A stretch of 64,000 nucleotides of DNA from Candidatus Competibacteraceae bacterium (lineage in GTDB: Bacteria; Pseudomonadota; Gammaproteobacteria; Competibacterales; Competibacteraceae): assembly GCA_016790045.1 (NCBI GenBank), contig JAEUPW010000003.1:3451-67450 (forward strand), read 5' to 3'. Each line of letters opens with the position of its first letter. Position 1 is the first letter of the stretch. A program made the translations under genes and the position numbers. This document shows, in pieces, positions 36,454-51,775 of this stretch. Under the pieces are notes generated by a model that did not search any database, had not been told where the DNA came from, and was given only the letters and a program-made list of their open reading frames with translations.

Positions 36454-38997
36454 CTACAGTTCCCGCAGGCTGCGCCAAGGCGGTTGACCGAGCGCCGAGC
36501 GCGCCCCGATCAAGCCGGCCAAACCCACGCCCACCACGCCCGCGATGGCGCCCAACAGCCAGACCCAGGCGTTCCAGCGATACGGAAAGTCGAACACCTG
36601 CACCGCGAGCACGTAGCTCAACACGGTCGCGGCGGCGGCGGCCAGCACCCCGGCCAGCAACCCCAGAGTGGCGAACTCCGCCAGCAGGCTTTCCCGCACC
36701 ACCGCCCGGCGCGCGCCCAAGGTGCGCAACACCGCGCTTTCGAACCGCCGCTCGTCCTGGGTGGCCTGAATCGCGGCGTACAACACCACCAGCCCGGCCG
36801 CCAGCGTGAACAGAAACACGTATTCGACCGCCGCGACCACCCGGTCCATGATCTCGCGGACTTTGCCCATCAGCGCGTCCACGTCCAGCACCGTCACCGA
36901 GGGATGTTGCCGGACCAATTCCGCCAGCAGCGGTTTCCGGTCCAAGGGCAAATGAAAGCTGGTGATCCAGGTCGCCGGATAAGCGTCCAGCACGCCGGGC
37001 GGAAACATCACGAAAAAATTGACCCGAAACGAATCCCATTCCACGGTGCGCAGGCTGGTGGTTTTAGCCTCCAAAGTCTGGCCGGCGATCTGAAATCGCA
37101 GGGTATCGCCCAGGCCGATGCCGAGCAGTTCGGCCAAACCCTTCTCCACCGAAGCGACTCCCTGGCCTCGCTCCGCCGCGCCCCACCAGCGACCGGCAAT
37201 GATGTGGTTGTCATCTTGCAAGCGCTCGGCCCACGAGAGGTTGTATTCCCGTTCGACCAAACGCTTGGCGCGCGGGTTGTCGAAGTCCTCCGGCGCGATG
37301 GCCCGACCGTTGATCGCCGTCATCCGCCCCCGCACCATCGGAAACAGCTCGACGCCGGTCAGGCCGCGCTCGCGCAAAAACGCTTGCACGCGATCCACCT
37401 CGCCGGGCTGGATGTTGATCAGGAAATGGTTGGGCGCATCGGCCGGCAAACTGGCGCGCCAACTGGTCAGCAAATCGGCGCGCACCAGCGTCAGCACCAG
37501 CAAAGCCATCAACCCCAAACCCAGCGCCACCACTTGCGCCGCGCTGCCGGGACCGCGCCGGGCGATGTTGGCCAAGCCGAACCGCCAGGCCACCCCGACC
37601 CGGCCGCGCAGCAGGTTCAAGGCCTTGACCAAGCCCCAGGCCGCCAGCGACAGCGCGATCACCGTTCCCGCCACGCCGGCGCACACGTAGAGCGCCAAGC
37701 GCCATTCGCCCGCCTGCCAGACCAGCAGCGCGGCGGTCGCCAGCACGGCGGGGCCGTACAGCGCCAACAGGCGCGAATCGACCGGCCCGAGATCGCGCCG
37801 CAACACCCGCAGCGGCGGCACTTCCCGCAGCCGCAATAGCGGCGGCAAGGCAAAACCCAGCAACGTGACGAAGCCGGTCAGCAGCGCCGGCACCACTGGC
37901 CGCCAGGACGGCGGCGGCAATTCGGCGCGGCTGACCAATTGCCCGAGCACGCCGCTCAAGCCGTACTGGGTCAGATAACCGACCGCCAGACCCGCCGCGC
38001 CGGCCAGCGCCGCCAGCAGCAGCAGTTCGAGCGCGAACAGCCGGGTCACCAAGGCTTGCGTGGCCCCGACGCAGCGCAGGATCGCCACGCTGTCCCAGTG
38101 GCGGGCGGCGAAGCGGCGGGCGGCGATGGCGATGCCCACGCCCGCCAGAATCACGCTGACCAGCGCCGCCAAATTCAAAAACCGCTCGGCCCGCTCCAGC
38201 GCCACCCGCAACTCGACCCGCGCGTCGCGCACGCTTTGCAATTTCTCGCCGGCCTTCAACAGCGGTCCCGCCGCATCTTTAAACGCTTGCAGCGCGGCGG
38301 GTTCTCCGGCGACCAACAGCCGGTATTCGGCCCGGCTGCCGGGCTGGATCAACTGGGTCGAGGGGATGTCGGCCACATTCAACAGCGCGCGCGGGGCGAG
38401 ACTGAACAGGTCACCCGCCCGATCCGGCTCGTACGCCAGCACCTGAGCGATTTGAAAAGCGCGCGCGCCGAGGTTGACGCTATCGCCGACTTTGAGCCCC
38501 AGCGCTTGCAGCAAGCGCTCGTCCAGCCAGACCTGACCGGGTTCGGGAATCGCCGTCGCCACGCGGGCGGGCGCGAACGGCTGGTCGCTGATTTGCAGCG
38601 CGCCGCGCAGCGGATAGCCGGGCCCGGCCGCCTTAACCTCGGCCAACTGGGTCAGATCGCCGGACACCACCACGCTGCGAAAATTGAGCAGTTCGGCGGT
38701 CGAAAGACCTTGCCGGCGGGCCGCGTCCGCCAGCGCCGGTTGCAGGGGGTTCGGCGCGCTGACCGCCAGATCGGCCCCCAACAATTCGCTGGCCTTGCGC
38801 TCCATCGCCTGCTGGATGCGGTCGGTGAAAAAGCCGACGGCGGCGACGCTGGCGACCGCGATCAACAAAGCGGCCGCCAGCACTCGCAACTCGCCCGCCC
38901 GCCAGTCGCGGCGCAGCGCCCGCCACGCCATCCGCGCCAGCGCCGACCACGGCTGGAGCGGGGTTTTATCCTCAGGGCTCACGCTATCGGCTGACAT
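36454..38997 (-). CDS. ybbP: YbbP-like FtsX-type ABC transporter permease
   Basis: RRDWRAGEL, GYPLRG, APNHFLINIQ, VEWDSFRVNF. Conserved ybbP-ybbA/tesA synteny. Confidence 0.85.
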   Translation of the reverse strand: MSADSVSPEDKTPLQPWSALARMAWRALRRDWRAGELRVLAAALLIAVASVAAVGFFTDRIQQAMERKASELLGADLAVSAPNPLQPALADAARRQGLSTAELLNFRSVVVSGDLTQLAEVKAAGPGYPLRGALQISDQPFAPARVATAIPEPGQVWLDERLLQALGLKVGDSVNLGARAFQIAQVLAYEPDRAGDLFSLAPRALLNVADIPSTQLIQPGSRAEYRLLVAGEPAALQAFKDAAGPLLKAGEKLQSVRDARVELRVALERAERFLNLAALVSVILAGVGIAIAARRFAARHWDSVAILRCVGATQALVTRLFALELLLLAALAGAAGLAVGYLTQYGLSGVLGQLVSRAELPPPSWRPVVPALLTGFVTLLGFALPPLLRLREVPPLRVLRRDLGPVDSRLLALYGPAVLATAALLVWQAGEWRLALYVCAGVAGTVIALSLAAWGLVKALNLLRGRVGVAWRFGLANIARRGPGSAAQVVALGLGLMALLVLTLVRADLLTSWRASLPADAPNHFLINIQPGEVDRVQAFLRERGLTGVELFPMVRGRMTAINGRAIAPEDFDNPRAKRLVEREYNLSWAERLQDDNHIIAGRWWGAAERGQGVASVEKGLAELLGIGLGDTLRFQIAGQTLEAKTTSLRTVEWDSFRVNFFVMFPPGVLDAYPATWITSFHLPLDRKPLLAELVRQHPSVTVLDVDALMGKVREIMDRVVAAVEYVFLFTLAAGLVVLYAAIQATQDERRFESAVLRTLGARRAVVRESLLAEFATLGLLAGVLAAAAATVLSYVLAVQVFDFPYRWNAWVWLLGAIAGVVGVGLAGLIGARSALGQPPWRSLREL

Positions 38998-39001
38998 GGC
39001 G

Positions 39002-39766
39002 CTAGCGGGCCTCCGCGTTGTGTTTTTCGCCGCGCAAGCGCCCGTCGTCCAATTCCAAAATCCGGTCGCAGTAAGCCGCCAATTCCGGGTCGTGCGTCAC
39101 CAGCACCAAGGTCGTCCCGTGTTCGCGATTGAGCGCGAACAGCAACTCGATGATGCGATGCCCGGTCTTTTGGTCGAGATTGCCGGTCGGCTCGTCGGCG
39201 AACAGCACGTCGGGATTGCCGGCGAAGGCGCGGGCGATGGCCACCCGCTGTTGCTCGCCGCCCGACAGTTGGCTGGGATAGTGGCGGGCGCGGGCCTTCA
39301 AGCCGACCCGGTCCAAAAGCTCCAGCGCCAGCCGGCCGGCCTCGGCCTGACCCGCCAATTCCAGCGGCAGCATCACGTTTTCCAGCGCGGTCAGACCGAG
39401 CAGCAACTGGAAGGATTGAAACACGAAGCCGACCCGTTGCGCCCGCAGCAGCGCCCGGCCATCCTCGTCCAAACCGCCGAGGTCCACCCCGGCCAGCCAC
39501 ACGCGGCCCTGGCTTGGCGTATCCAAACCCGCCAGCAAGCTCAGCAACGTGGACTTGCCGGACCCGGACGCGCCGACCACGGCCACGCGCTCGCCCCGGC
39601 CGATCTGAAAATGGATCGCGTCCAGAATGACCAGCGGGCCTTCCGGGCTGATGACCTGCTTGCGCAGGTTTTCCGCCCGCACGATGGTCTCGCTCCGATT
39701 GTCTGATCGTGGCGCGCCGGTTACGCTAACGCCGCTGCCCGCTTCCTGGTCAACATCCACCCGCAT
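39002..39766 (-). CDS. ybbA: YbbA-like ABC transporter ATPase
   Basis: [34 protein letters not shown] 39766 with GGGAG RBS. Confidence 0.88.
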
Positions 39767-39780
39767 GACGCCATTCTCCC

Positions 39781-40413
39781 ATGATGAAAACGAAGGCCTT
39801 GAAACCATTATCGATCCTGCTTTGGCTGAGCGCGCTGCTCTGGATGGTACCCGCCCGCGCCGACGCTCCGGTCATTTTGATTTTGGGCGACAGCTTGAGC
39901 GCCGGTTACGGCATTCCCATCGAGCGCGGCTGGGTCAACTTGTTGCAAGCCCGGCTCGTGGAGCGCGGCTTTCCGCATCGCGTGGTCAACGCCAGCATCA
40001 GCGGCGACACCACCAGCGGCGGCTTAAGCCGGTTGCCGGCGGCGCTGGCGCGCGAGCGGCCCGCTATCGTGGTGCTGGAACTGGGCGCTAACGATGGCTT
40101 GCGCGGCCAATCGCCCCCGACCATCCGCGACAATCTGGCGCGGCTGATCGAGCTTTCCCAACAAGCCGGGGCGCGGGTGCTGCTGGCCGAAATGCGGGTT
40201 CCGCCGAATTATGGCCCTTCCTACACGCAAAAGTTTCAGGCGATGTTCACCGAGCTGGCCCAGCGTTACGCGATCCCGCTGATCCCCTTCCTGCTCGCCG
40301 GCGTGGCGGGCGATCCGGCCTTGACTCTGGACGATGGCTTGCACCCGCGCGCCGAAGGCCAGCAGCGGATTTTAGACAACGTTTGGCCGACGCTGGAGCC
40401 GGTTTTGCGCTAA
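39781..40413 (+). CDS. tesA: Arylesterase/acyl-CoA thioesterase I (GDSL/SGNH)
   Basis: Signal peptide, GDSLSAGY, NASISGDTT, ELGANDGLRG, DGLHP. Confidence 0.93.
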   Translation: MMKTKALKPLSILLWLSALLWMVPARADAPVILILGDSLSAGYGIPIERGWVNLLQARLVERGFPHRVVNASISGDTTSGGLSRLPAALARERPAIVVLELGANDGLRGQSPPTIRDNLARLIELSQQAGARVLLAEMRVPPNYGPSYTQKFQAMFTELAQRYAIPLIPFLLAGVAGDPALTLDDGLHPRAEGQQRILDNVWPTLEPVLR

Positions 40414-40611
40414 ACCCGCAACTCAAACGCCGGCGAGACGCCCGCGATCGCCGCCCAAAATGGAGGCGAGATTTTTTCGTGCGCTGGCATTCGCTCGCGC
40501 TCAACACTGAACCCGCATGGCCGCATGGCCGGACATCGGCGGGCGACCCCAGAGCTTGACTGGCCGCTTATCGAGCGCTAACGCCTTCAAAAACAGGCCG
40601 TTACTTTCGGG

Positions 40612-40628
40612 TGCGGCAATTTGTCACA
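40612..40628 (+). promoter_or_regulatory. Putative RegA box 1 (TBDR operon promoter)
   Basis: TGCGGCAATTTGTCACA, 24 nt upstream of TAAAAT (40653-40658). Resembles boxes 2 and 3 and the GCG(G/A)C...GNCGC RegA/PrrA consensus. Confidence 0.65.
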
Positions 40629-40687
40629 TTCAAATGGACGCGACCTTGTCCCTAAAATGAGCGGATGCTCTGAAGGGAACACTTTGA

Positions 40688-42802
40688 ATGCCAATAACAA
40701 TAAATCGCTGGGTCTTGACCCTCATCTGTCTTCCTCTGGTTGGCCAGGCGCAAGATAAAACAGAAGAAACGCGCCTCGACGAAATATCTGTCACCGCCAC
40801 GCGCGAGGAACGCGCCAGCGGCGACGTGCCGCAAGCCATCGCCGTGGTCGGCAAAGCCGAGTTGCGCGAAAAAAAGCTGTTCAACGTCAAGGAAGCGCTA
40901 CAGGAGATTCCCGGCGTTTTCGTGGACAGCAAAAACGGCGGTTTTGACGCCCGCCTGATCATTCGCGGCGCGGGCTTGAAAGCGAATTACGGCATCCGCG
41001 AGATCATGGTGTTGCGCGATGGCGTGCCGCTGACCGACCCCGACAGTTTCAGCCGCCTGGATTTTGTGGACACTCAGGACATCGAGCGCATCGAGGTGGC
41101 CAAGGGACCGGGCAACCTGTTCGCCGCCGGCAGCAGCGGCGGCGCGATCCAGATTTTCTCGAAATCGGTGTTCGACGAGAGCGCCAACAACCTCAAGCTG
41201 GGTTTGGGCGCGGAAGGCACCCAGAACTATCACCTGCGCTACGGCAAGACCTTTGAAAATCAGGCGGTGGCGCTGACGGCCACCCATCGCCGGATGGACA
41301 ACGACTGGCGCATCTGGAACCAGTTCGACACTACCCAAATCTCTCTGAAACATGGCCTGCTGTTCGGCGACGGCAGTTTGGAAAGCGAAATTTCCTACGC
41401 CGAAGCCAACATGCAGCTCCCCGGCGCGCTGGATAAAACGCTTTATGATCGGTTCGTCGCCAGCGGCGAGCAGACCGCCACGTCCGAGGCGTGGAAGCAT
41501 TCCGGTCGTTATTCCAAGGTGTTGTTCCTGAATAGCAAATACGAAATCGAGCGCGGCGATTTCGCCTTTAAGCCCCGGATTTACTACAACACCTGGTATC
41601 ACGACCACCCGGTGACCGGCCTGATTAACGAGAGCGAGGACTGGGTCTGGAATCTGGGAGCCGACCTGGAAGGCCACTGGCAACATCCCGGCGGCAGCTT
41701 GGTGGGCGGTGTCACCGTCCGCCAGGAAAGAACGCCCGACGCCCGCAAATACCAGTATGGTCAGGTCAAAACCACGACCAGCGGCGGAGCGTGCGTCGAT
41801 TCGGCCACGGCCACCGGCCGCATTCTGGCCACCTGTTCCGACAGCAAGGGCCGGCTGGCGGAAATCGACGACGCCACCAATCTGCTCACCGGCGTTTATT
41901 TGCAAGAATCGTGGCGACCGCTGGAGCGCTGGATCGTCGATATCGGAATGCGCTATGACGTGATCGACTTCACGGACGATAACCGGCAGTTGTGGAAATA
42001 CGACTACGCCGCCGGCAAATACATCCCCGGCGAAGGCGTGACCCATTCGGAAAAAACCTACCGCCTGCCCGCGCCCAAGCTGGCGGTGCTTTACCAGTTG
42101 ACCGACACGCTCAATCTGTTCGGCATGATCGCCCAGGCCGGACAGGTTCCTTCGCAAAGCGAATTTTCCAACAACCCGGAGCTGGAAGCGCCGGTTTCCC
42201 GCAACCACGAAATCGGCCTGAAGGGACGCGGCAAGGATTGGCGGCTGGATGCCAGCCTCTATCTGAACAACGTCAAGAAAGAAATCGTCACCGTCAACAC
42301 CGGCGGCATCAACGACTTCGTCAATGCCGGGGAAACCGAGCGCAAGGGCCTGGAACTATCCGGCAGCGTCAATCTCCCCGAAGGCTTCGAGGTCGGCGGC
42401 TACTACGGCTACGCCGATTACACCTACAAGAGTTTCAGCGAACCGGTCGCAGGGGCGAATGTGGACCGGGCGGGCAACGCGGTGCCGTTCGTGCCGAAGA
42501 ACCAGTACGGCCTATTCCTCGGGTGGTCGTCGCCCGCCGGCTGGAAGGCGCGCCTGTCCTCCAACACCTGGGGAGAATATTGGCTGGATAACGCCAACAC
42601 CGAAAAATACGAAGGCTGGGACTGGGTGACCAATTTCTCTCTGAGCTACGCCCGCCACGGACACTCAATCACCTTCAACGCCGACAATATGTTCGACAAG
42701 CACTATGCGATGGAGGTCAAGAAAGACACCGCCGGCAAGGTCACGTACGCCGCCGCCGCGCCGCGCACCGTGATGTTGACCTACCGCTACGATTTCAAGT
42801 GA
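40688..42802 (+). CDS. TonB-dependent outer membrane receptor
   Basis: Signal peptide, TonB box DEISVTATR, plug LQEIPGV...IIRG...IERIEVAKGP, beta-barrel-type C-terminus PRTVMLTYRYDFK. Confidence 0.93.
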   Translation: MPITINRWVLTLICLPLVGQAQDKTEETRLDEISVTATREERASGDVPQAIAVVGKAELREKKLFNVKEALQEIPGVFVDSKNGGFDARLIIRGAGLKANYGIREIMVLRDGVPLTDPDSFSRLDFVDTQDIERIEVAKGPGNLFAAGSSGGAIQIFSKSVFDESANNLKLGLGAEGTQNYHLRYGKTFENQAVALTATHRRMDNDWRIWNQFDTTQISLKHGLLFGDGSLESEISYAEANMQLPGALDKTLYDRFVASGEQTATSEAWKHSGRYSKVLFLNSKYEIERGDFAFKPRIYYNTWYHDHPVTGLINESEDWVWNLGADLEGHWQHPGGSLVGGVTVRQERTPDARKYQYGQVKTTTSGGACVDSATATGRILATCSDSKGRLAEIDDATNLLTGVYLQESWRPLERWIVDIGMRYDVIDFTDDNRQLWKYDYAAGKYIPGEGVTHSEKTYRLPAPKLAVLYQLTDTLNLFGMIAQAGQVPSQSEFSNNPELEAPVSRNHEIGLKGRGKDWRLDASLYLNNVKKEIVTVNTGGINDFVNAGETERKGLELSGSVNLPEGFEVGGYYGYADYTYKSFSEPVAGANVDRAGNAVPFVPKNQYGLFLGWSSPAGWKARLSSNTWGEYWLDNANTEKYEGWDWVTNFSLSYARHGHSITFNADNMFDKHYAMEVKKDTAGKVTYAAAAPRTVMLTYRYDFK

Positions 42803-43701
42803 GATCGGCCATGCGCGCGCTCGCCTTGGCCTTATGGTGTGTATGGGTTTCGGCTGCTCTCGCGGCCGACGGCGGCCATGCCGGACACGGGCAGGCCGGA
42901 TCGGGACACGAGGGGCACGGGCCAGGGCTATCTGCCGCTTGGACCGACCTGCCCCTGATCGAAGCGGTTCCGGGCCGCGACCGCTCCTCCGCGACGTTTC
43001 ACCTGAGTCAGCTCTCGGCGGGCGAGGTTAAAGCATACGCTCCGGGCGACCAAGCGCCACTGCCGGAAGGGGTGCGCTTCAAGGCCGACCGCCTGGAATG
43101 GGAGATTCCGGTGCGGAACGGTCGCTTTCGTCTGGAATCGACCGGCGTCGGCAACTACCACTGGCTGCAAGCCCGCGAGGAAACGCCGGAAAGCGTCAAG
43201 GTCGCCAGCACGGCGCATTTCTTTTCCAACCCCGGCCCGGCACCGACCGCGATGCTGGCGCGCCCCAAAACCGAACTGGAGATCGTGCCAACGCCGCTAC
43301 CGCGCGAGCACAACCGGTATCGCGCTGGCGAGGAATGGGATTTTGCCTTGCGCTTTCGCGGCCAACCGCTCGCCGGCGCGACCTTGCAGTGGATCAGCGA
43401 TGCCGGGACGCGAGCAAGCTTCACCAGCGACGCGGCCGGCCAGGCCAGAGTCCGCTTTCCCGCCGATGTGCGGCCCGCCGCCGGCCAGCGCGCGCAACAC
43501 GGCCGGGGCGCGGCCAACCGCTTTGTGCTGGCGGTGGAACACACCGTCGATGGCCGCCGCTACCTCACCGCGTTCAACGGGAGCTATGCCGAAAACGCCT
43601 TTGCCCGGAGAAGTTTGCTCTGGGGAAGCGGCTTTCTGGTGGTGGGCGGCCTGCTCGGACTGCCGCTGATCGTGCGCCGCAAGGAAACCCGTCATGCCTG
43701 A
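42799..43701 (+). CDS. Exported His-rich protein with DUF4198-like domain and C-terminal membrane anchor
   Basis: Signal peptide, then GHAGHGQAGSGHEGHG. LEIVP...FRGQPLAGA...TSDAAGQA resembles DUF4198. C-terminal TM plus basic tail. Start GTG 42799 or ATG 42811. Confidence 0.7.
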   Translation: MRSAMRALALALWCVWVSAALAADGGHAGHGQAGSGHEGHGPGLSAAWTDLPLIEAVPGRDRSSATFHLSQLSAGEVKAYAPGDQAPLPEGVRFKADRLEWEIPVRNGRFRLESTGVGNYHWLQAREETPESVKVASTAHFFSNPGPAPTAMLARPKTELEIVPTPLPREHNRYRAGEEWDFALRFRGQPLAGATLQWISDAGTRASFTSDAAGQARVRFPADVRPAAGQRAQHGRGAANRFVLAVEHTVDGRRYLTAFNGSYAENAFARRSLLWGSGFLVVGGLLGLPLIVRRKETRHA

Positions 43702-44746
43702 AACCGCTCCGCCACCCGTGTTGACCGTAAGCCGCCTGCGCCTGAGCGTGCAACTGCTGATGCTGGTTTTGACCGTCTGGGGCGGCGCGCTGGTCGGCCA
43801 CTACGCCGCCGAAAAAATCTCCCAAGCGTTGCCGGCCCTCTCGTGCGCTTACGACCGCGCCAACGGCGCGTATTGCGTGCTGATCCCGCTGCAACATCAG
43901 ATGCACCACCGGATCGGTGAAATGATCCAGCAGACCGGTCATTTCGCGTTGAGTTTCTTGTTGCCGGTGGTCTTTACGCTGCTCGCCTTTTATGCGTTTT
44001 ATTTCTTTATCGGCAAGGCGTTCTGCGGCTGGGTGTGCCCGCTGGGCACGGTGCAGGAATGGCTTTACCGCCTGGGCCGCGTGTTGCGCCGCCCCTTTCA
44101 TCTCTTATCCGAGCGAGCGGCAAAACGGTTGCGTCCGCTGAAATGGCTGCTGTTGCTGGCGCTGGTCCTGGGTCTGCCGCTGGCGGCCGGCCTGGGCTTG
44201 ACACCGCACGCCACCGGCGATGTGTTTTGCCAGGTGTGCCCATCCCGTCTGGCGACCACGCTGCTGACCGGCGACACCGAACAGGCCGCGATCCGCACCG
44301 GCGGCGTTCTGGATTTTGCCTTCGGCGCGCTGGCCAACACCATGTTCGGCTTTGTGCTGATCGCCGGCTTGGCCGTGCGCCAGCCCTTCTGTCGCATCTG
44401 CCCGCTGCTGGCGCTGAACGCCGCGTTCCAGCGCCTGTCGCCTTTGCGCCTCGTCAAGCAACCGCACGAGCAATGCGCCAAGTGCGGCATCTGCACCAAG
44501 GCTTGCCCGATGGATATTCCCGAAATCTGGCATGAGTCGGGGCAAAAAGCGTTTGCCGAGGACTGCACCCTGTGTGGCCGCTGCGCCGAATATTGCCCGG
44601 ACGATGCGGTGATCCAAATCAAATTCGGCCCGGTGCGGCTGTTCGGCTCGTCGCGCGCGTACTACAAGGCGCGGATCAAAGGCGAAAGCCCGCAAGGCGA
44701 ACTCAAAACGGTGCGCTGGTTCCCCCGCCGGATTCCCCATGCTTGA
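43694..44746 (+). CDS. Membrane 4Fe-4S polyferredoxin (NapH/MauN/CcoG/NosR-like)
   Basis: About 4 TM helices, CX3CP motif CGWVCP, additional FCQVCP and FCRICP, two ferredoxin motifs CAKCGICTKACP and CTLCGRCAEYCP. Confidence 0.88.
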   Translation: MPETAPPPVLTVSRLRLSVQLLMLVLTVWGGALVGHYAAEKISQALPALSCAYDRANGAYCVLIPLQHQMHHRIGEMIQQTGHFALSFLLPVVFTLLAFYAFYFFIGKAFCGWVCPLGTVQEWLYRLGRVLRRPFHLLSERAAKRLRPLKWLLLLALVLGLPLAAGLGLTPHATGDVFCQVCPSRLATTLLTGDTEQAAIRTGGVLDFAFGALANTMFGFVLIAGLAVRQPFCRICPLLALNAAFQRLSPLRLVKQPHEQCAKCGICTKACPMDIPEIWHESGQKAFAEDCTLCGRCAEYCPDDAVIQIKFGPVRLFGSSRAYYKARIKGESPQGELKTVRWFPRRIPHA

Positions 44747-45365
44747 ATCGGCTCACTTGCTTTCGGCCTGGTTGCTCGGTTTGTCGTTGGGGCTGACCGC
44801 CTGCACGGCCACCTGCCTGCCGTTCATGGGAACCTGGGTGCTGGCGCGCGAGCGCGGCGCGGTGCTGGCCGATACCGGCCTGTTTCTGGTCGGTCGGGTC
44901 AGCGCCTACACGCTGCTCGGCTTGATCGCCGCCTTGAGCAGCGCGCGGTTGATCGCCGTTTTGCAAAATGGCGTCGGTCATCTGGCCATCGGCGCGGCGG
45001 CGATTGGGGCCGGCTCGTGGCTGTTGCTGGCGGAACAGCGACCGCGCGCCTGCGCCACGTCGCACAGTGCGGGAGCGCCGCCGTTCGCTTTGGGCTTCGC
45101 GCTGAGCCTGACGCCCTGCGCGCCCCTGGCGTCTCTGCTGGCTTTCGCGGCCCAATCCGATTCCGGCTGGTTCGGCGCGTTGCAGGGTCTGGCGTTTGGT
45201 CTGGGCGCGGCGGTCACGCCTTTACTGCTGTTGCTGCCGCTGCTGTCCGCGTTGGGCGCGCGGCTGCGGGCGGAACAGCGCTGGCTGGGTTTGTGGTTGC
45301 GGCGCGGCGTGGCGCTGAGCCTGTTCGTGCTGGGCATGTATCGGTTCTGGCTGGGAACGATATGA
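44739..45365 (+). CDS. DsbD_2/CcdA-like Cys-containing membrane protein (often annotated TauE/SafE)
   Basis: About 6 TM helices, GLTACTATCLP in TM1, GRVSAYTLLG, LTPCAPL in TM4, AFGLG. Confidence 0.75.
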   Translation: MLESAHLLSAWLLGLSLGLTACTATCLPFMGTWVLARERGAVLADTGLFLVGRVSAYTLLGLIAALSSARLIAVLQNGVGHLAIGAAAIGAGSWLLLAEQRPRACATSHSAGAPPFALGFALSLTPCAPLASLLAFAAQSDSGWFGALQGLAFGLGAAVTPLLLLLPLLSALGARLRAEQRWLGLWLRRGVALSLFVLGMYRFWLGTI

Positions 45366-45784
45366 ACAATTTAAAAGAGCTGGTCGAATACGGCGTGCTG
45401 GGTTTGCTGCTGGCGCTGTCGGTGTGGGCGGTCGCCATTGGCGTTGCCCGGTTCTGGCACTACCGGCGGATCGACGTTTCAGCCTGGGGCAAGCGAGCGG
45501 AATTGGAAGCCGATCTCACCGCCGGATTGACCACCGTGGCCACCGTGGCGGCCAACGCGCCTTACATTGGCCTGCTGGGCACCGTGCTAGGGATCATGCT
45601 GACCTTTCAAACCCTGGGCCTGACCGGCGACATCGACGTGAAAACCATCATGACCGGACTGGCGCTGGCGCTGAAAGCCACCGCCGCCGGTCTGCTGGTG
45701 GCGATTCCCTGCGTGGCGCTGAACAATGCGCTGCGCCGCCGGGTCAAGCTGTTGCTGGCGCGCTGGGACGCTCACCATGGATGA
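45362..45784 (+). CDS. exbB: Short (140 aa) ExbB/MotA-TolQ family energiser
   Basis: ANAPYIGLLGTVLGIMLTF, LALALKATAAGLLVAIP. Confidence 0.9.
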   Translation: MNNLKELVEYGVLGLLLALSVWAVAIGVARFWHYRRIDVSAWGKRAELEADLTAGLTTVATVAANAPYIGLLGTVLGIMLTFQTLGLTGDIDVKTIMTGLALALKATAAGLLVAIPCVALNNALRRRVKLLLARWDAHHG

Positions 45785-46145
45785 GGAAATCGCCTCCATC
45801 AACGTGATTCCGCTGGTGGACATCATGCTGGTGCTGCTCACCATCGTCTTGACCACCGCCACCTTCATCGTCACCGGCCATATTCCGGTCGATCTGGCGC
45901 GAGCGCAACACGCCGCGCCGAGCCAGCCCAGCCCAACGGTGCTGACGCTCACTTTGCAACGCGCGGTTTATCTCGACGACCGGCCGGTCGCCGATCTGCC
46001 GGCCGCTCTAGCCGACCTTTCGCGCGCGACCCCGGTGGTGGTGCGCGCCGATGGTGGACTGGCTTTGCGCGATTTCATCGATCTGGTGGAACGGATCAAG
46101 GCGTTGGGCTTCGCCCAGGTGAGCCTGGAAGTCAAACGGACATGA
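45777..46145 (+). CDS. exbD: ExbD
   Basis: INVIPLVDIMLVLL with the conserved Asp, VRADG. Confidence 0.9.
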   Translation: MDEEIASINVIPLVDIMLVLLTIVLTTATFIVTGHIPVDLARAQHAAPSQPSPTVLTLTLQRAVYLDDRPVADLPAALADLSRATPVVVRADGGLALRDFIDLVERIKALGFAQVSLEVKRT

Positions 46146-47044
46146 ACTGGCGGGCCTGGGCGGCTTCCCTGGTCCTGCATTCCGCGGTCGTGGCTCTGCT
46201 GGTCGGTTTTGCCGGCGCCGATCCATCCCTTCGTCGGCCCGAACGCTGGCAAGTGCAACTGGCGTTCGCCGCGCCGCCGGAACCTCCGCCGGCACCGCCG
46301 TCACCGTCGGTTCCCGCGCCGCACCCCCCCGTGCACTCCCCGGTTCCGACGCCCCTGGCGAGCGCAGTGACGCCAAGCCCGACCGTTGCCACCCAGCGCC
46401 CCAAGCTGTCGCCGGCTCCCACCGTCCAGCCACTGCCCCGAACGAAGCGCGATTCGCTGTCGCAACCCCGACAACCGCCGCGACCAGCGGTTGAAAAACC
46501 GGTATCGGCCCCGCGCAAACCGTCCCCGTTGCCGCCCACTGTCGCCCTCAAAGCAGCGCCCCGACCATCGAAACAACCGGCGACGTCTTCTGCCGCGTTG
46601 TCGCGACCGATAGGGCAGGAAGTGCTTGATTCTTCCCGGCCTGGGCTTAGAGAAACAAGGCAGTCTCCACCAGAACACCGGACGGCGGTCGGCCACCCCG
46701 CAGCGCGACCCACCACCCGCGATCACCCGCCGCCCGCCAGGTCCAGCCCGGAATCTGGGGCGGCGAACTGGAACGCCGCCCTGCGCGCCAAGCTGCGGGA
46801 AATGCGGGTTTACCCGCCCATCGCGCGCCGTTTGGGCCAGGAAGGCATCGTGACGCTGCTGCTGGAGATCGGCGCAAACGGCGATTTGCGCGGGTTGGCG
46901 GTCCGGCAAAGTTCCGGGCATGCGGTACTGGATCAGGCCGCCCAGCAACTGGCCCGCAACGCGGTTTCCGCGCTGCGCGGCCAACTGTCGCCACCCGGCG
47001 AGAGCAGGCTGGAAATCCCCGTCGCGTATCGGCTGGATCGCTGA
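46142..47044 (+). CDS. tonB: TonB energy transducer
   Basis: TM with SLVLH, long Pro-rich linker, C-domain YPPIARRLGQEGIV...SSGHAVLDQAA. Confidence 0.9.
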   Translation: MNWRAWAASLVLHSAVVALLVGFAGADPSLRRPERWQVQLAFAAPPEPPPAPPSPSVPAPHPPVHSPVPTPLASAVTPSPTVATQRPKLSPAPTVQPLPRTKRDSLSQPRQPPRPAVEKPVSAPRKPSPLPPTVALKAAPRPSKQPATSSAALSRPIGQEVLDSSRPGLRETRQSPPEHRTAVGHPAARPTTRDHPPPARSSPESGAANWNAALRAKLREMRVYPPIARRLGQEGIVTLLLEIGANGDLRGLAVRQSSGHAVLDQAAQQLARNAVSALRGQLSPPGESRLEIPVAYRLDR

Positions 47045-47189
47045 TTGGAATATGCGGTGCAGGTTTCCAGCTACTCCGGCTTAGCCGTTCACCTTGGCGC
47101 TGGATCGTAATGGAAGCGAAACGACCGGACGCGAGCGCCTGTTTTGGACACTCCCGCCGTGGCCGCTTGCGCAAACCCTTGATGGACCG

Positions 47190-47609
47190 TCACCAGCTCA
47201 TCGTCTTGGTGTCATCCTTGAACAAAGCCCCTCCGGTCAATTCCGGTTTGCCGACCAGAATGCCGGGCAGCAGGTCGGCCGTTTCGATGCCATAGTGTTT
47301 CATGCACATCAGACAGGCGATGACGGTGGCGCCTTTCCCCATCAGCTCGCCCAAAACCTTCTGGTGTTGGCCATATTTCGCCGCATGGGCCTTCGCGCCC
47401 ACGAAAACCCCTTTGTCGTTGAGGAAGATCGTCAGCGGATGGCCTCGCTCCATCTGGGCTTTTCCAAAACTGATGGCCATGTTGGCGCGGTGGGCTTCGT
47501 CGGTGGTCATGTTCACAAACAGCGGATCGCGCTCTCCGGCGAACACGTGCTCGGACGCCACACCAGCCCACAGCACCAGAGCAGCCAGCAATGTTGTTAA
47601 GGCTTTCAT
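47190..47609 (-). CDS. Exported DsrE-family protein with CxxC
   Basis: AGGAG RBS, signal peptide, LTIFLNDKGV, GATVIACLMCMKHYG. Confidence 0.8.
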   Translation of the reverse strand: MKALTTLLAALVLWAGVASEHVFAGERDPLFVNMTTDEAHRANMAISFGKAQMERGHPLTIFLNDKGVFVGAKAHAAKYGQHQKVLGELMGKGATVIACLMCMKHYGIETADLLPGILVGKPELTGGALFKDDTKTMSW

Positions 47610-47980
47610 GGGTTTCTCCTAAGTCAAATCGACAACAACGCAAGGTATCTGGAGCACCTGCAACCGGGCCGAAAAACGATCAGGGGCAGTTTTTATGTTC
47701 TCGAATCAGTCGGTCGCTTGATCCGCTTTCAGCCGCGAGGCCATGAAACCCATGCCACCCGCGCCGCCATGCCTCGAATCCGCCGCCGGCATGGCCCAAG
47801 GACAGATGATTTCAATGTCCTGCAACCGGTAGCCACGACCGCTGGCGAGCAGCGAAAAATCCGTCGATAGCGATGCGGTGAACCCGCAGGAAAACCGCTG
47901 CAAACGCACCACCAAACTTCTGGGACCACGCGGTAGGCTCAATGCTTGCTCATGCTAAATCACGGAGATTAGAGCGAGAA

Positions 47981-47997
47981 TGCGACAAATTGTCGCA
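47981..47997. promoter_or_regulatory. Putative RegA box 2 (perfect palindrome)
   Basis: TGCGACAA-A-TTGTCGCA. On the minus strand TAGCAT (47957-47952) follows after 23 nt, pointing toward the dsrE-like gene. Confidence 0.75.
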
Positions 47998-48051
47998 CTC
48001 CCGAAACCCCGAAAGTCGCTACAATCTAACGAGAATCGCCGAATGGAGGCT

Positions 48052-48651
48052 TCAAAGAGCGCAACCCGCTCGCGCCAGTTCGGCATAGGTGACCGGCTGT
48101 CGCGACGGATCGATGTTTAAGCCTAGCCGCAAGCCGATGTGCGATAACGAGAAAATACCGCGCACCGCGCGCTCTTCCGGCTCCGCACCGCCATCGAGCA
48201 CCAGCGCGTGCTGGCGGTCGACTTGCCGCAACGTCGCGATGATATCGCCCACTCGCGCCCGCGAGATGTCCTCCATCAGCAGCACATCCAGTTTCGGCCT
48301 GAGCGTCATGACATCGGCAGCCACCAAATCTTCCCAAGCGCCGCCGGATTTGGTCAGAATCCGTTCGGGTTTGCCGTCGCAAAGATCGCGGCTGGTCAGC
48401 AGACCAACAATTTTACCGTCGGGTTCGCAAACCAACAGGAGACGTACCTTTTGCTCGATCATGAGAGCCAGAACGCCATTTAATGGAGTCGACCGCCCGA
48501 CGGTGCAAGCGGGGACCCGGTTCAAATCGGTCATGACGGTCACGGCGGGATCGTCGAGGGTAACGCGTCGGGACGATAGGCGCTGGAGACAAAAAAATCG
48601 GATATCTCTTTCCAACGGATGCAACGGCAGCGGTCGGTAAGCGCGCTTCAT
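48052..48651 (-). CDS. CBS-domain protein
   Basis: GGAG RBS before ATG 48651. PAVTVMTD, VRLLLV...IVGLLTSRDL, ADVMT, RGIFS form a CBS pair. Confidence 0.85.
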   Translation of the reverse strand: MKRAYRPLPLHPLERDIRFFCLQRLSSRRVTLDDPAVTVMTDLNRVPACTVGRSTPLNGVLALMIEQKVRLLLVCEPDGKIVGLLTSRDLCDGKPERILTKSGGAWEDLVAADVMTLRPKLDVLLMEDISRARVGDIIATLRQVDRQHALVLDGGAEPEERAVRGIFSLSHIGLRLGLNIDPSRQPVTYAELARAGCAL

Positions 48652-48739
48652 CGGAAATCTCCAGGAACAGAACCCTATTGTGGCCAGCCGTTCGGCGGGT
48701 GATCTCACGAATCTTACGGGATGGCCACCTGGCCCGGAA

Positions 48740-48756
48740 TGCGGCATATCGCCGCG
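48740..48756. promoter_or_regulatory. Putative RegA box 3 between the CBS gene and regB
   Basis: TGCGGCATATCGCCGCG. Minus-strand TAAGAT (48716-48711) lies 23 nt away. Plus-strand TATACT (48777-48782) points toward regB. Confidence 0.6.
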
Positions 48757-48836
48757 CCTGCGAGCCGGACAAACCCTATACTTGGCCGTTTAAAACCCCC
48801 TCCATCAATCAGAAATTGAATCGGAAACCCCTGTCG

Positions 48837-50072
48837 ATGGACGATTTGCGACGCTTGCTGTTGCTGCGCCTGTTGGTGGTTTTGGGACCGGCCATCATGC
48901 TGCTTTGGTTGCGTTTCGGCTTGACGCCGCCGCAACCGCTCCCCTTGTGGGCGATTGCATTGTTTCTGGCGCTGATCGCCTCAGGCTCTATCGGGTTGTA
49001 CTGGCGGGTTCGATCACCGGTTTCGATCACCCCCTGGGAACTGTTTGGCTACTTGCAGCTCGATGTGCTGGCGCTGGCCGGGCTGTTGTATTTCGGAGGC
49101 GGGGCCAGCAACCCGTTCGTTTCTTTGCTGTTGCTGCCGCTGCTGATCGCCGCCGCTTTGTTGCCGGCCGTTTGCGTCTGGATAATGGCGGGCATGACGG
49201 TCGCGGTTTACACGGGCTTGATGTTCTATTACCTGCCGCTGCCGGGGATGCTGAGCGGGCACGGCCCCGGCTTTCACGCCCACTTGTGGGGCATGTGGCT
49301 GGTGTTCGTGATCAGCGCCTTACTGGTGGCGGGCTTCGTGGCCCGGCTGGCGGCGGCGCTGCGCCGGCGGGACCGCGAGGTGGCCCGGCTGCGCGAGAAA
49401 GCCTTGCGCGACGAACAAATTTTAACCTTGGGGATGTTCGCGGCCGGCGCGGCGCACGAGTTGGGCACGCCCTTGTCCACCATCGCGGTGCTGGCCAAAG
49501 AGCTGGAACACGAATACGGTGCGGAGGCTTCGCTGCGCGCCGACTTGCGGACGCTGCGCGGGCAAGTGGATGCGTGCAAGGCCATCCTCGGCGACCTGCT
49601 GCGCGCCGCCGACTTGAGCGCCGACCGCGAGTCGATGCAACCGCTGGATCAGTTGTTGGAGCGCACCCGCAACCGCTGGCAACTGCTTCGCCCGCAGGTG
49701 CCGCTGCGGGTCCATTGCGCCGGATCTCCGCCGCCGCCGACCGTTCCTTCGCCGCAGACCGTCGGCCAAACCTTGATCAGCCTGCTCAACAACGCCGCCG
49801 ACGCTTGCCCGCAGGGCGTCGATCTGGCGGGGCGCTGGGACGCGCGGCGGGTGATTATCGAAATCCGCGACCGGGGTCCTGGGCTGTCGCCGGAACTGGC
49901 CCAACAGGCGGGAAAGGGATTTTTCACCACCAAAGAAGGCGGCTCCGGCATCGGCTTGCTGCTGGCCAACGCCACGCTGGAGCGGCTGGGCGGGCAAGTC
50001 ACCCTGTCGCGCGACCCGCGAGGAGGAACCTGCACCCGCATCGATTTGCCCGCCCGGCTCCAAGCCGCATGA
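48837..50072 (+). CDS. regB: RegB/PrrB-type redox sensor histidine kinase
   Basis: About 6 TM helices, quinone-sensing GGASNPF motif, H-box AAHELGTPL, downstream conserved Cys (QVDACKAIL), LLNNAADA, DRGPG, GIGL. Confidence 0.9.
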   Translation: MDDLRRLLLLRLLVVLGPAIMLLWLRFGLTPPQPLPLWAIALFLALIASGSIGLYWRVRSPVSITPWELFGYLQLDVLALAGLLYFGGGASNPFVSLLLLPLLIAAALLPAVCVWIMAGMTVAVYTGLMFYYLPLPGMLSGHGPGFHAHLWGMWLVFVISALLVAGFVARLAAALRRRDREVARLREKALRDEQILTLGMFAAGAAHELGTPLSTIAVLAKELEHEYGAEASLRADLRTLRGQVDACKAILGDLLRAADLSADRESMQPLDQLLERTRNRWQLLRPQVPLRVHCAGSPPPPTVPSPQTVGQTLISLLNNAADACPQGVDLAGRWDARRVIIEIRDRGPGLSPELAQQAGKGFFTTKEGGSGIGLLLANATLERLGGQVTLSRDPRGGTCTRIDLPARLQAA

Positions 50073-50626
50073 CAGCCGTTGCCGATCAGCCCAGTTTGCT
50101 GTTGGTGGACGACGACCCCGTTTTTTGCCGGGTGTTGAGTCTCGCCTTGGGGCGGCGCGGCTTTGCCGTCGCCGTCGCGCGCGACGGCGAGAGAGCCTTG
50201 TATCAGGCGCGGGCCGAACCGCCCGATTGCGCCGTGGTGGATCTCAATCTGGACGGCGATTCCGGCTTGCGGTTGATCCCGTCTTTGCTCGCGCTCAATC
50301 CCGCCATCCGCATCGTGGTGCTGACCGGCTACGCCAGCCTGGCGACGGCGGTGGACGCCATCAAACTCGGCGCGATCAACTATTTGGCCAAACCGGCTGA
50401 CGCCGATGAGGTGGTCGCCGCCTTGGCCGCCACCCCAGGCGAGGCGTCCGCGCCGATCAGCCGCCGCCCGCTGAGCGTCAACCGCCTGGAGTGGGAACAT
50501 ATCCAGCGGGTGCTGCGCGACAACGGCGGCAACATCTCCGCCACCGCGCGCCAGTTGGGAATGCACCGCCGCACCTTGCAGCGCAAACTGGCCAAGCGGC
50601 CGGTGAAATTTTCAATCGAATCCTGA
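50069..50626 (+). CDS. regA: RegA/PrrA-type response regulator
   Basis: LLLVDDD, VVDL, LTGYASLATAVDAIKLGA, signature HTH EWEHIQRVL...NISATARQLGMHRRTLQRKL. Confidence 0.93.
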   Translation: MTAVADQPSLLLVDDDPVFCRVLSLALGRRGFAVAVARDGERALYQARAEPPDCAVVDLNLDGDSGLRLIPSLLALNPAIRIVVLTGYASLATAVDAIKLGAINYLAKPADADEVVAALAATPGEASAPISRRPLSVNRLEWEHIQRVLRDNGGNISATARQLGMHRRTLQRKLAKRPVKFSIES

Positions 50627-50749
50627 CGCCCGCGCGGGCGTCACACCAGCCGGATCGAGCGTTCCGCGCCAACGCTTCAAAGCTTGCCAAAATCGAATCG
50701 AACCCCGCGAACCGCGCGCTCGACGAAGCGATCTTCTCGCGGCGCTCGG

Positions 50750-51775
50750 TCAAACCACCACCGGTTCCGGCTCCAGCACCACGCCAAATTCATCCAGCAC
50801 CGATTCCTGGATCGACCGCGCCAGCCGCAACACATCCTGCCCGCGCGCCCCGCCGCGATTGACCAGCACCAGCGCCTGCTTATCGTAAACGCCGACCGCG
50901 CCAAACCACTTGCCTTTCCAGCCGCAGCGCTCGATCAGCCAACCCGCCGCCAGCTTGACCGCGCCGTCCGGCTGCGGGTAATGCGGCGCGCCGGGATAGC
51001 GGGCGATAAACTCGGCGAACGCGGCGGCGTCCACCACCGGATTTTTGAAGAAGCTGCCGGCGTTGCCGATCTGCGCCGGGTCCGGCAGCTTGCGGGAGCG
51101 CACCGCGACGACCGCATCGGCGATCTGCCGCGCGGTCGGCTTTTCGATCTTGGCGGCTTCCAGCTCGCGCGCCAGTTCGGCGTAACCCGTGACGGGCGTC
51201 CAGCGTTTCGGCAGGCGAAACGTCACGCTGGCAATCAAAAAGCGGTTGGCCGCCTCGCGCTTGAAAACGCTGTCCCGATAACCGAACCCGCAAGCGTCGC
51301 GATCGAACGCCCGCAGCTCACCCGTCGCCAGATCAACCGCCTCCAGACCCTGAAACCGCTGCGCCAACTCCAAACCGTAAGCGCCGATATTCTGAATCGG
51401 GGACGCCCCGACCGTGCCGGGGATCAGCGCCAGATTCTCCAAACCCGGCCAACCTTGCTCCAGCGTCCAACAGACAAACTCGTGCCACGGCTCGCCCGCG
51501 CCGGCCCGCACCAGCCACGCCTCTTGATCCTCGCCCACCAGCGCCCGGCCCGGAATCCGCGCGTGCAACACCAGCCCGTCAAAATCGCCGGTCAAAATCA
51601 CGTTGCTGCCGCCGCCCAGCACCAAGCGCTGCAAATAGCGCCATTCCGGCGTCGCGATCAGCGCGGCGAGCCGCTCCAGGCTATCGACGGCGGCAAACCA
51701 CGCGGCGCGGGCCGGCAGGCCGAAGGTGTTCAGCCGGTGCAGCCGGATGTCGCGCTGAAACAAAACGGAGGACAC
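50750..51775 (-). CDS. murB: UDP-N-acetylenolpyruvoylglucosamine reductase
   Basis: [61 protein letters not shown] 51775 with GGGAG RBS. Confidence 0.95.

Follow-up and report, generated by a model that had tools for sequence, protein, structure and literature searches.

Copper acquisition by Gram-negative bacteria for respiratory oxidases and N2O reductase is poorly known. In the FtrABCD iron uptake system of Bordetella and Brucella, a metal-binding protein in the periplasm works with an inner-membrane permease and a membrane polyferredoxin. For copper, the CrtA-CrpH system of Bordetella pertussis (cruR-crtA-crpH), described as recently as 2022-2026, was the first TonB-dependent importer known together with its membrane reductase; it serves haem-copper oxidases (PMC9426467, PMC12914433, PMC13038864). 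It overlaps functionally with CcoG, and some of its loci carry their own ExbBD-TonB or Sco/PCuAC genes. This report concerns a seven-gene cassette in a 64,000-nucleotide (nt) stretch of contig JAEUPW010000003.1 of a Candidatus Competibacteraceae bacterium (GCA_016790045.1), hereafter the window. The cassette encodes, in this order, a TonB-dependent receptor (TBDR), a His-rich, membrane-anchored protein with the DUF4198 fold, a NapH-like polyferredoxin, a protein with the DsbD_2/CcdA fold, ExbB, ExbD and TonB. With moderate confidence, it is interpreted as an operon for TonB-energised copper acquisition that forms part of a small regulon, conserved between genomes and controlled by a response regulator of the RegA family. 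Operons that combine TonB-dependent metal uptake and a membrane reductase are known as a kind; what is new here are the families of the components and the apparent control of the RegA type.

The cassette shares with CrtA-CrpH the joint encoding of a TonB-dependent receptor and an inner-membrane electron-transfer protein. The receptor, however, is no member of the CrtA cluster (52 bits). In place of a haem-containing PepSY_TM protein, an Fe-S polyferredoxin is the candidate reductase, DUF4198-fold and DsbD_2 proteins are added, and control is apparently exerted at a RegA-type box rather than by the copper-sensing upstream open reading frame (ORF) CruR. FtrABCD follows the same logic as the cassette, but the cassette is TonB-dependent, has neither P19 nor the FTR1 permease and is co-regulated with copper instead of iron genes. 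Full-text searches found no paper describing this gene set in the library covered, in agreement with the first-pass annotation, which had called the system a candidate for an undescribed one. A flavinylation survey describes NapH-like, PepSY/DUF4198 and DsbD systems without this combination.

The source assembly has a size of 2.76 Mb and is 76% complete; its nearest relatives belong to Candidatus Competibacter. According to the ORF listing and family scans, the seven genes occupy positions 40688-47044 of the plus strand (Table 1). Adjacent genes share 4 or 8 nt, given that the starts of ExbB and ExbD are set as in relatives, so the overlapping operon proposed earlier is confirmed. The ExbD start chosen results in an 8-nt overlap and 122 amino acids, as in Sulfuritortus.

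Table 1. Features of the cassette and its surroundings (positions in the window).
Feature	Position	Strand	Basis or remark
RegA/PrrA-like box 1, TGCGGCAATTTGTCACA	40612-40628		abuts the -35 hexamer
Sigma-70-like promoter of the operon, TTCAAA-18-TAAAAT	40629-40658	+	only promoter-like site in 40350-48900
TonB-dependent outer-membrane receptor, 704 amino acids	40688-42802	+	Pfam Plug and barrel
Periplasmic DUF4198-fold protein, 300 amino acids, N-terminal His-rich tract, C-terminal membrane anchor	42799-43701	+	fold match
NapH-like polyferredoxin, four transmembrane helices	43694-44746	+	Fer4_5 and two 4Fe-4S motifs
DsbD_2/CcdA-fold membrane protein, six helices	44739-45365	+	Pfam and structure match
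Short ExbB, 140 amino acids	45362-45784	+	TIGR02805 exbB2
ExbD, 122 amino acids	45777-46145 (ORF also opens at 45726)	+	family scans
TonB, Pro-rich linker and TonB_C domain	46142-47044	+	family scans
Exported DsrE-like protein with CLMC	47190-47609	-	Pfam DsrE, E 4e-9
Conserved untranslated leader or small-ORF region 3' of box 2	47610-47980	-	comparison with L004
RegA-like box 2, TGCGACAAATTGTCGCA, perfect palindrome	47981-47997		only zero-mismatch box in the assembly
Stand-alone CBS-domain protein	48052-48651 (ORF reaches 48747)	-	family scans
RegA-like box 3, weaker, two mismatches	48740-48756		divergent CBS/regB region
RegB-family redox sensor kinase	48834-50072	+	best NCBIfam match ActS/PrrB/RegB
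RegA-family response regulator, REC and Fis-type helix-turn-helix	50069-50626	+	best NCBIfam match ActR/PrrA/RegA

Relatives of the polyferredoxin, 60-90% identical, are present in 332 species in a scan of one genome per species, and the neighbourhoods of 80 fetched loci were compared. The order DUF4198-like protein, polyferredoxin, DsbD_2 protein is kept in essentially all of them, wherever the contig allows. An orthologous TBDR (at least 44% identity) is encoded directly upstream of this trio in about 30-35 of the 80 loci, and a receptor of another type occurs in most of the remaining ones. The genes for ExbB, ExbD and TonB directly follow the trio in Competibacter, Thiobacillus, Gallionellaceae, Chromatiaceae and Sulfuritortus; in many further loci they are at most a few kb away from it. 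Both the synteny of the trio and the full cassette of Sulfuritortus bear out the conservation of the cassette as a unit. Its carriers are mostly sulfur and iron oxidisers and denitrifiers, among them Thiobacillus, Sulfuricella, Sideroxydans, Rhodocyclaceae, Magnetococcales and a Solemya symbiont. As a separate observation, a BNR/Asp-box β-propeller protein of 410 amino acids is encoded after a second TonB receptor beside the cassette in nine loci (e.g. L051:13918-15150).

Many genomes, belonging to several orders, have a conserved 17-bp palindrome, TGCGNCA-N3-TGNCGCA, approximately 75-130 bp before the cassette. Its 7-3-7 layout resembles that of the sites of other Fis-type helix-turn-helix proteins such as NtrC. 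The two best boxes of the whole assembly both flank the cassette, and the counterpart of box 3 in the closely related locus L004 has one mismatch. Box 1 fits the PrrA motif YSCGGC(5)GWCRMA exactly, and the RegR motif is matched by box 1 with two mismatches and by box 2 with one (motifs as quoted in PMC5506826). Five Competibacteraceae promoters align only at the box, the -35 and -10 hexamers and the ribosome-binding site; box 1 is invariant and its flanks diverge. With at most one mismatch, the box is found in the promoter window of 23 of 71 loci, compared with 0.024 expected per 500 bp; this is an undercount, as greedy ORF calls in GC-rich loci gave antisense shadow ORFs, which were excluded by hand. 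A second box is often present before the next TBDR or TonB gene 3' of the DsbD_2 gene. Perfect boxes number one or two per genome. Two exact boxes, one between truB and pnp in a Chromatiaceae genome and the other inside a mannitol dehydrogenase gene of the Solemya symbiont, were treated as chance occurrences.

The regB and regA genes downstream of the cassette form the only such pair in the assembly. By a wide margin, the best NCBIfam models for RegB and RegA are ActS/PrrB/RegB and ActR/PrrA/RegA, which match both proteins over the full length with 228 bits (cut-off 350) and 188 bits (cut-off 250), respectively. Inspection of the RegB sequence reveals a GGGASNPF stretch and an H-box, whose His is followed by a Cys about 40 residues further on. 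The pair resembles known RegB/RegA systems (PrrB/PrrA, RegS/RegR, RoxS/RoxR) in domain architecture, in the GGxxNPF stretch, in the PrrA-type DNA motif and in the genetic linkage to genes of Sco/SenC copper chaperones and terminal oxidases; in Rhodobacter the arrangement is regB-senC-regA. It differs from them in that both proteins stay below the NCBIfam equivalog cut-offs and in that the high-quality boxes define a very small regulon of TonB uptake and copper chaperone genes, not reported for RegA in the literature found. At least nine loci (L004, L006, L007, L023, L050, L051, L064, L079 and L082) have orthologous regBA genes no further than 10 kb from the cassette, in three arrangements, i.e. 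downstream, divergent and adjacent, or separated by cydAB. The chance of one specific operon lying within this distance is well under 1%.

Consensus scans detected no Fur- or Zur-like box above background (for Fur, in the window and 26 other cassette promoters), and an Rfam scan of positions 39500-51500 at E values up to 1 returned two chance-level matches only, and thus no known riboswitch. The first-pass annotation had noted a RegA-like box in place of a Fur box or riboswitch, together with a link to regAB. These statements stand: three boxes are present, the first fits the PrrA motif exactly and has counterparts in many cassette promoters, and regBA genes are repeatedly encountered next to the cassette.

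Haem-copper oxidases and NosZ depend for their copper on established chaperones, namely Sco, PCuAC and NosL. In the complete genome of Sulfuritortus, the exact box occurs once, in the cassette promoter. Sulfuricella denitrificans has two exact boxes. The first belongs to the cassette locus and immediately precedes a second TBDR gene 3' of the DsbD_2 gene; the second precedes a PCuAC gene by 79 nt and has the same distance of 23-24 nt to a -10 hexamer. Among 30 cassette-bearing genomes, 20 of the 30 PCuAC loci have a box no more than 1.3 kb upstream of PCuAC, either directly before this gene or heading an operon that encodes an unassigned Cys protein of ~170 amino acids, Sco/SenC and PCuAC. In three genomes regBA adjoins the boxed PCuAC operon. 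A second DsbD_2 gene, a box and two NosL genes are situated beside the cassette in L032 and L082, and six loci have a NosL pair no more than 10 kb from the cassette, in five cases together with the second DsbD_2 gene. The most complete ensemble, with three boxes within 17 kb, belongs to a metagenome-assembled genome of Azonexus sp. (L082:3815-19700). It comprises regA-regB, cydAB, the boxed cassette with its TBDR, the second DsbD_2 gene, two boxed NosL genes and a boxed operon for an unassigned protein, Sco and PCuAC. The bd oxidase is a copper-free alternative oxidase. Since the boxed regulon includes Sco-PCuAC and NosL operons, copper is favoured over iron, nickel and zinc as the probable substrate.

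Several observations accompany these operons. The locus L082 appears to be the best single one for experimental dissection. The ~170-residue Cys family has no Pfam match and is characterised by an N-terminal transmembrane helix and the Cys motifs PxCDL..AC and LPVCITG.M.W. It heads boxed Sco/SenC-PCuAC operons (L093:267-806, L089:840-1376, L107:855-1361 and L109:286-804), is encoded just upstream of the cassette in L018:6539-6856, and is a candidate for a new copper-handling protein. The second DsbD_2 protein is of a different type with the motif GSGHCxxMCGG; together with a RegA-like box and two NosL-family genes it forms a module in L082:13774-15735 and L032:11812-13677, the latter adjoined by a P-type ATPase gene. 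This module is also present in L010, L012 and L077, and L047 has the NosL pair only. Its composition suggests that DsbD_2 proteins may work with copper chaperones more generally.

The receptor exceeds the Pfam cut-offs for both the plug (70.9 bits) and the barrel (137 bits) and is thus a TonB-dependent transporter. Its closest relative of known structure is YncD/PqqU with 119 bits; all others reach at most 53 bits. The best NCBIfam model is a siderophore-receptor subfamily (175 bits), and on the PqqU model the score is 139 bits with a cut-off of 1200. CrtA of B. pertussis (pdb entry 9rvq) matches with 52 bits in a low-confidence alignment. In the CrtA site, formed by Y130, W265, E337, Q356, H358 and R395, the residues E337, Q356 and H358 pair with T310, G329 and W331 of the receptor (H330 is adjacent), and the receptor is not of the CrtA type. 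Transporters of the OprC/NosA type have a copper site of Cys, Met and His. The 22 orthologous receptors share H222, H305, H307, H333 and H659, only one conserved Met and no conserved Cys; neither is an OprC chain found among the PDB matches at E 1e-5 or better. The receptor is therefore not of the OprC/NosA type. ExbB scores 142 bits on the exbB2 model (cut-off 135).

The 300-residue protein carries a signal peptide, is rich in His over residues 27-41 and has a transmembrane helix at its C terminus. Its score on Pfam DUF4198 (PF10670) is 25.2 bits, below the cut-off of 34. The AlphaFold2 model (mean predicted local distance difference test score 85.9) nevertheless has the DUF4198 fold: the top Foldseek matches are Zcp (E 9e-10, TM-score about 0.55-0.59 on the target) and the nickel-bound IsDUF4198 (9gcb, E 5e-7). 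In the orthologues the His-rich tract is kept in composition and the anchor is conserved. With the three-His metal site of Zcp (H29/H31/H142) or an N-terminal His used for comparison, H30 and E170 are each present in at least 90% of the orthologues, and about 90% have H171. Because the model shows the tract as disordered, the geometry of a site is not readable from it. IsDUF4198 of Ideonella binds nickel with a dissociation constant of 18 nM, and DUF4198 genes neighbour TonB receptors and NikR (PMC12537917). Zcp of Neisseria gonorrhoeae binds zinc, and in some species DUF4198 genes respond to iron limitation (PMC12663993). These exported metal-binding proteins, often encoded beside TonB receptors, have the same fold as the cassette protein. 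The latter differs by its low identity to them (12-17%) and sub-threshold Pfam score, its C-terminal anchor helix, its disordered N-terminal His-rich tract and its constant association with the polyferredoxin and DsbD_2 genes.

Polyferredoxins of the CcoG/RdxA and NapH/MauN/NosR types share a Fer4_5 domain, membrane-near Cys-Pro motifs and two C-terminal 4Fe-4S motifs; CcoG is a cupric reductase. The cassette polyferredoxin contains Fer4_5, two 4Fe-4S motifs, CGWxCP and FCRxCP, which are predicted on the cytoplasmic side by the positive-inside rule. It differs from the known types by a family-specific outer loop with the invariant C51, C61 and QHQxHHR and by a CxxCPSR motif: in the loops predicted to be periplasmic, C51, C61, Q67-H68, H71-H72-R73 and C179-x-x-C182-P are invariant. 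The score on the NapH/MauN model TIGR02163 is 69 bits compared with a cut-off of 213, so that the protein, given its motifs and Fer4_5 domain, is probably a relative rather than a member of this family. On the CcoG/RdxA/FixG model TIGR02745 it obtains 21 bits (cut-off 316.7). As regards CcoG, the label NapH/CcoG-like in the first-pass annotation is thus appropriate at the level of the superfamily only, but not in the sense of membership.

The DsbD_2 protein scores above the cut-offs of Pfam DsbD_2 (59.8 bits, cut-off 24.9) and DsbD_TM (28.5 bits, cut-off 27.1). C22 and C26 (C22xxxC26) as well as C127 are invariant, and C105 is present in at least 90% of the sequences. The motifs C26-L-P and P-C127-x-P are also invariant, and this Pro-Cys pair together with the family match assigns the protein to DsbD/CcdA; the invariant C22 and the conserved C105 are atypical for this group. 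In a VIA search the best structural match is CcdA (5vkv) with a Z-score of 8.8 over 192 residues, which is middling for helical bundles, followed by RnfE/NqrE-type subunits. NqrD/E hold an intramembrane centre. Foldseek returned no PDB match at E 0.001 or better. No gene for a thioredoxin fold is present in the operon, and none recurs among the neighbours scanned. The cassette protein may move Cu(I), transfer electrons through thiols or have an intramembrane centre of the NqrD/E kind.

The regulation of the cassette, which is the strongest of the results, and its link to copper are suggested by comparative evidence, and the assignment of the metal draws on the content of the regulon. Several points weigh against this interpretation. 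The receptor belongs to neither of the two copper-receptor types, its closest solved relative being the PQQ (pyrroloquinoline quinone) importer PqqU, and the polyferredoxin is not a CcoG member. Receptor and DUF4198 fold would suit other divalent metals equally well, and the characterised DUF4198 proteins prefer zinc or nickel. Furthermore, binding of RegA to the box is predicted from motif match and linkage, and the RegA of At. ferrooxidans has no definable motif (PMC5506826). In the assembly itself, which is 76% complete, the PCuAC gene has no box. NosL, cbb3 ccoN, NosZ and CcoG all stay below cut-offs in this genome, which is uninformative given the incomplete assembly and the silent NosZ control.

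It is unlikely that the cassette instead serves reductive iron uptake, in which a ferric chelate would be imported, the polyferredoxin would reduce Fe(III) in an FtrD-like or PepSY-type manner and the DsbD_2 protein, like FTR1 assigned to the LysE/DsbD superfamily, would allow Fe(II) to enter. Such a function would agree with the several TBDRs that cluster around the core trio, with the siderophore-receptor subfamily as the best model of the receptor and with the response of DUF4198 genes to iron limitation in some species. In addition, RegA of Methylomonas directly activates feo, and TBDR/tonB genes depend on it (PMC13274454). However, these TBDR/tonB genes constitute a different locus, a haem and siderophore island without a polyferredoxin that RegA does not bind in chromatin immunoprecipitation, and their identity with the cassette was rejected. 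A Fur-like box is not above background in any of the promoters scanned, and the co-regulated genes are those of copper chaperones, not iron genes. An uptake of nickel, cobalt or zinc, with the DUF4198-fold protein as a nickel/zinc shuttle, the DsbD_2 protein as permease and the polyferredoxin as an accessory, is considered distinctly improbable. The Pfam family DsbD_2 includes nickel permeases of the UreH type. The computed fold match, the nickel and zinc binding of IsDUF4198 and Zcp, the proximity of DUF4198 genes to TonB receptors and NikR and a receptor with conserved His and without conserved Cys all point in this direction. Yet these metals need no reductase, and it is the polyferredoxin gene that is best conserved and linked without exception. 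Additionally, a Zur-like box was not found, NikR is missing among the sampled neighbours scanned with Pfam, and the regulon partners are copper chaperones. The first-pass annotation had proposed copper or nickel as the most likely substrate; the boxed Sco-PCuAC and NosL operons favour the former and leave nickel as a lesser rival. Least probable by far is the import and reduction of an organic redox cofactor (quinone-like, such as PQQ) or a sulfur compound instead of a metal. The similarity of the receptor to YncD/PqqU, which clearly exceeds that to all other solved structures, and the nearby DsrE-like gene are consistent with it, but the score on the PqqU model is far below its cut-off, and the conserved His-rich tract and the DUF4198 fold point to a metal. 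The DsrE-like gene, from which a sulfur compound had been derived as an alternative, lies on the opposite strand and does not accompany the cassette elsewhere, which weakens this part of the earlier proposal.

The palindrome might also be the site of another regulator, e.g. a copper-responsive one, with the adjacency of regBA reflecting shared physiology; this, too, appears unlikely. One or two perfect boxes per genome are unusual for a global regulator, the published RegA, PrrA and RegR motifs are degenerate and mutually dissimilar (PMC5506826), and most cassette loci have no regBA within 10 kb. On the other hand, the box in the window is an exact match to the PrrA motif, the 7-3-7 palindrome resembles sites of Fis-type proteins, and box 3 lies in the promoter region of regB. 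Moreover, different lineages combine regBA with either the cassette or the boxed PCuAC operon, in three arrangements altogether. No other regulator recurs in the neighbourhoods scanned.

In the preferred interpretation as a copper acquisition operon, the receptor, driven by its own ExbB-ExbD-TonB, would import Cu(II) or a copper chelate; the protein families indicate uptake, and we infer the metal. The anchored DUF4198-fold protein, whose fold is computed, would catch the metal with its His-rich tract, as suggested by the binding properties of Zcp and IsDUF4198. Electrons would pass through the polyferredoxin from the cytoplasmic 4Fe-4S clusters to the Cys and His residues of the outer loops, where Cu(II) would be reduced to Cu(I), as the comparison with CcoG and CrpH suggests; in this way the metal may be released reductively at the inner membrane. 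The Cys-lined DsbD_2 protein could conduct Cu(I) across or along the inner membrane or supply reducing equivalents. A thiol relay is conceivable by inference only, and the operon encodes no thioredoxin-like partner. Copper would then enter the Sco-, PCuAC- and NosL-dependent assembly of haem-copper oxidases and N2O reductase. Because the -35 region of the promoter abuts a PrrA-type box, expression of the operon would track the redox state of the quinone pool and respiration sensed by RegB. For beta- and gammaproteobacterial chemolithotrophs and denitrifiers in general, a RegB/RegA-governed copper regulon is tentatively proposed. Its import arm would be an inner-membrane pair not described before, composed of an Fe-S polyferredoxin as cupric reductase with an outward Cys/His site and a Cys-lined DsbD_2 conduit for Cu(I), fed by a TonB receptor and a His-tipped DUF4198 shuttle.

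The genes between the cassette and regB were described in the first-pass annotation as trailing the operon. The DsrE-like, CBS and regB-regA genes are all present; the DsrE-like and CBS genes, however, are on the minus strand and convergent with the operon and thus do not belong to it. The DsrE-like gene is missing at the other cassette loci, including L004, and the exported CxxC protein was rejected as a redox partner on account of this absence and its opposite strand. The CBS gene is not conserved with the cassette, and a CBS gene also adjoins regB in L004. Contigs C107 and C121 of the genome encode further paralogues of the DsrE-like protein (75% identity) and the CBS protein (57%). The stretch of ~330 nt between box 2 and the DsrE-like start is 72-78% identical to L004, where no DsrE gene follows it. 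Its conserved core might be translated into a short peptide, PWAMPAAxSxHGGAxGMG, for which the window and L004 share an aligned TTG start, or might be an RNA. It has no Rfam match and was not found in other loci. Upstream of the cassette, genes for an ABC ATPase and a MacB/FtsX-type permease are located on the minus strand (36454-39808), with a divergently transcribed GDSL thioesterase gene beside them (TesA model, 184 bits; whole region 36454-40413). This layout resembles the tesA/ybbA-ybbP arrangement of E. coli, and the genes are a tesA/ybbAP-like module unrelated to the cassette.

The cassette has a wide distribution among oxidisers of sulfur and iron, among denitrifiers and in wastewater bacteria, e.g. 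Competibacter and relatives of Dechloromonas. If the interpretation is correct, it represents a second, mechanistically distinct route of copper acquisition that uses Fe-S and Cys chemistry instead of haem. The supply of copper for haem-copper oxidases and NosZ would then be tied to the respiratory redox state and not to a copper sensor, which suggests that it is anticipated from the redox state via RegBA. The box provides a sharply defined candidate operator of the RegA family for bacteria whose RegA motifs have proved elusive. Since NosZ needs copper, the system could bear on the emission of N2O from treatment plants and sediments.

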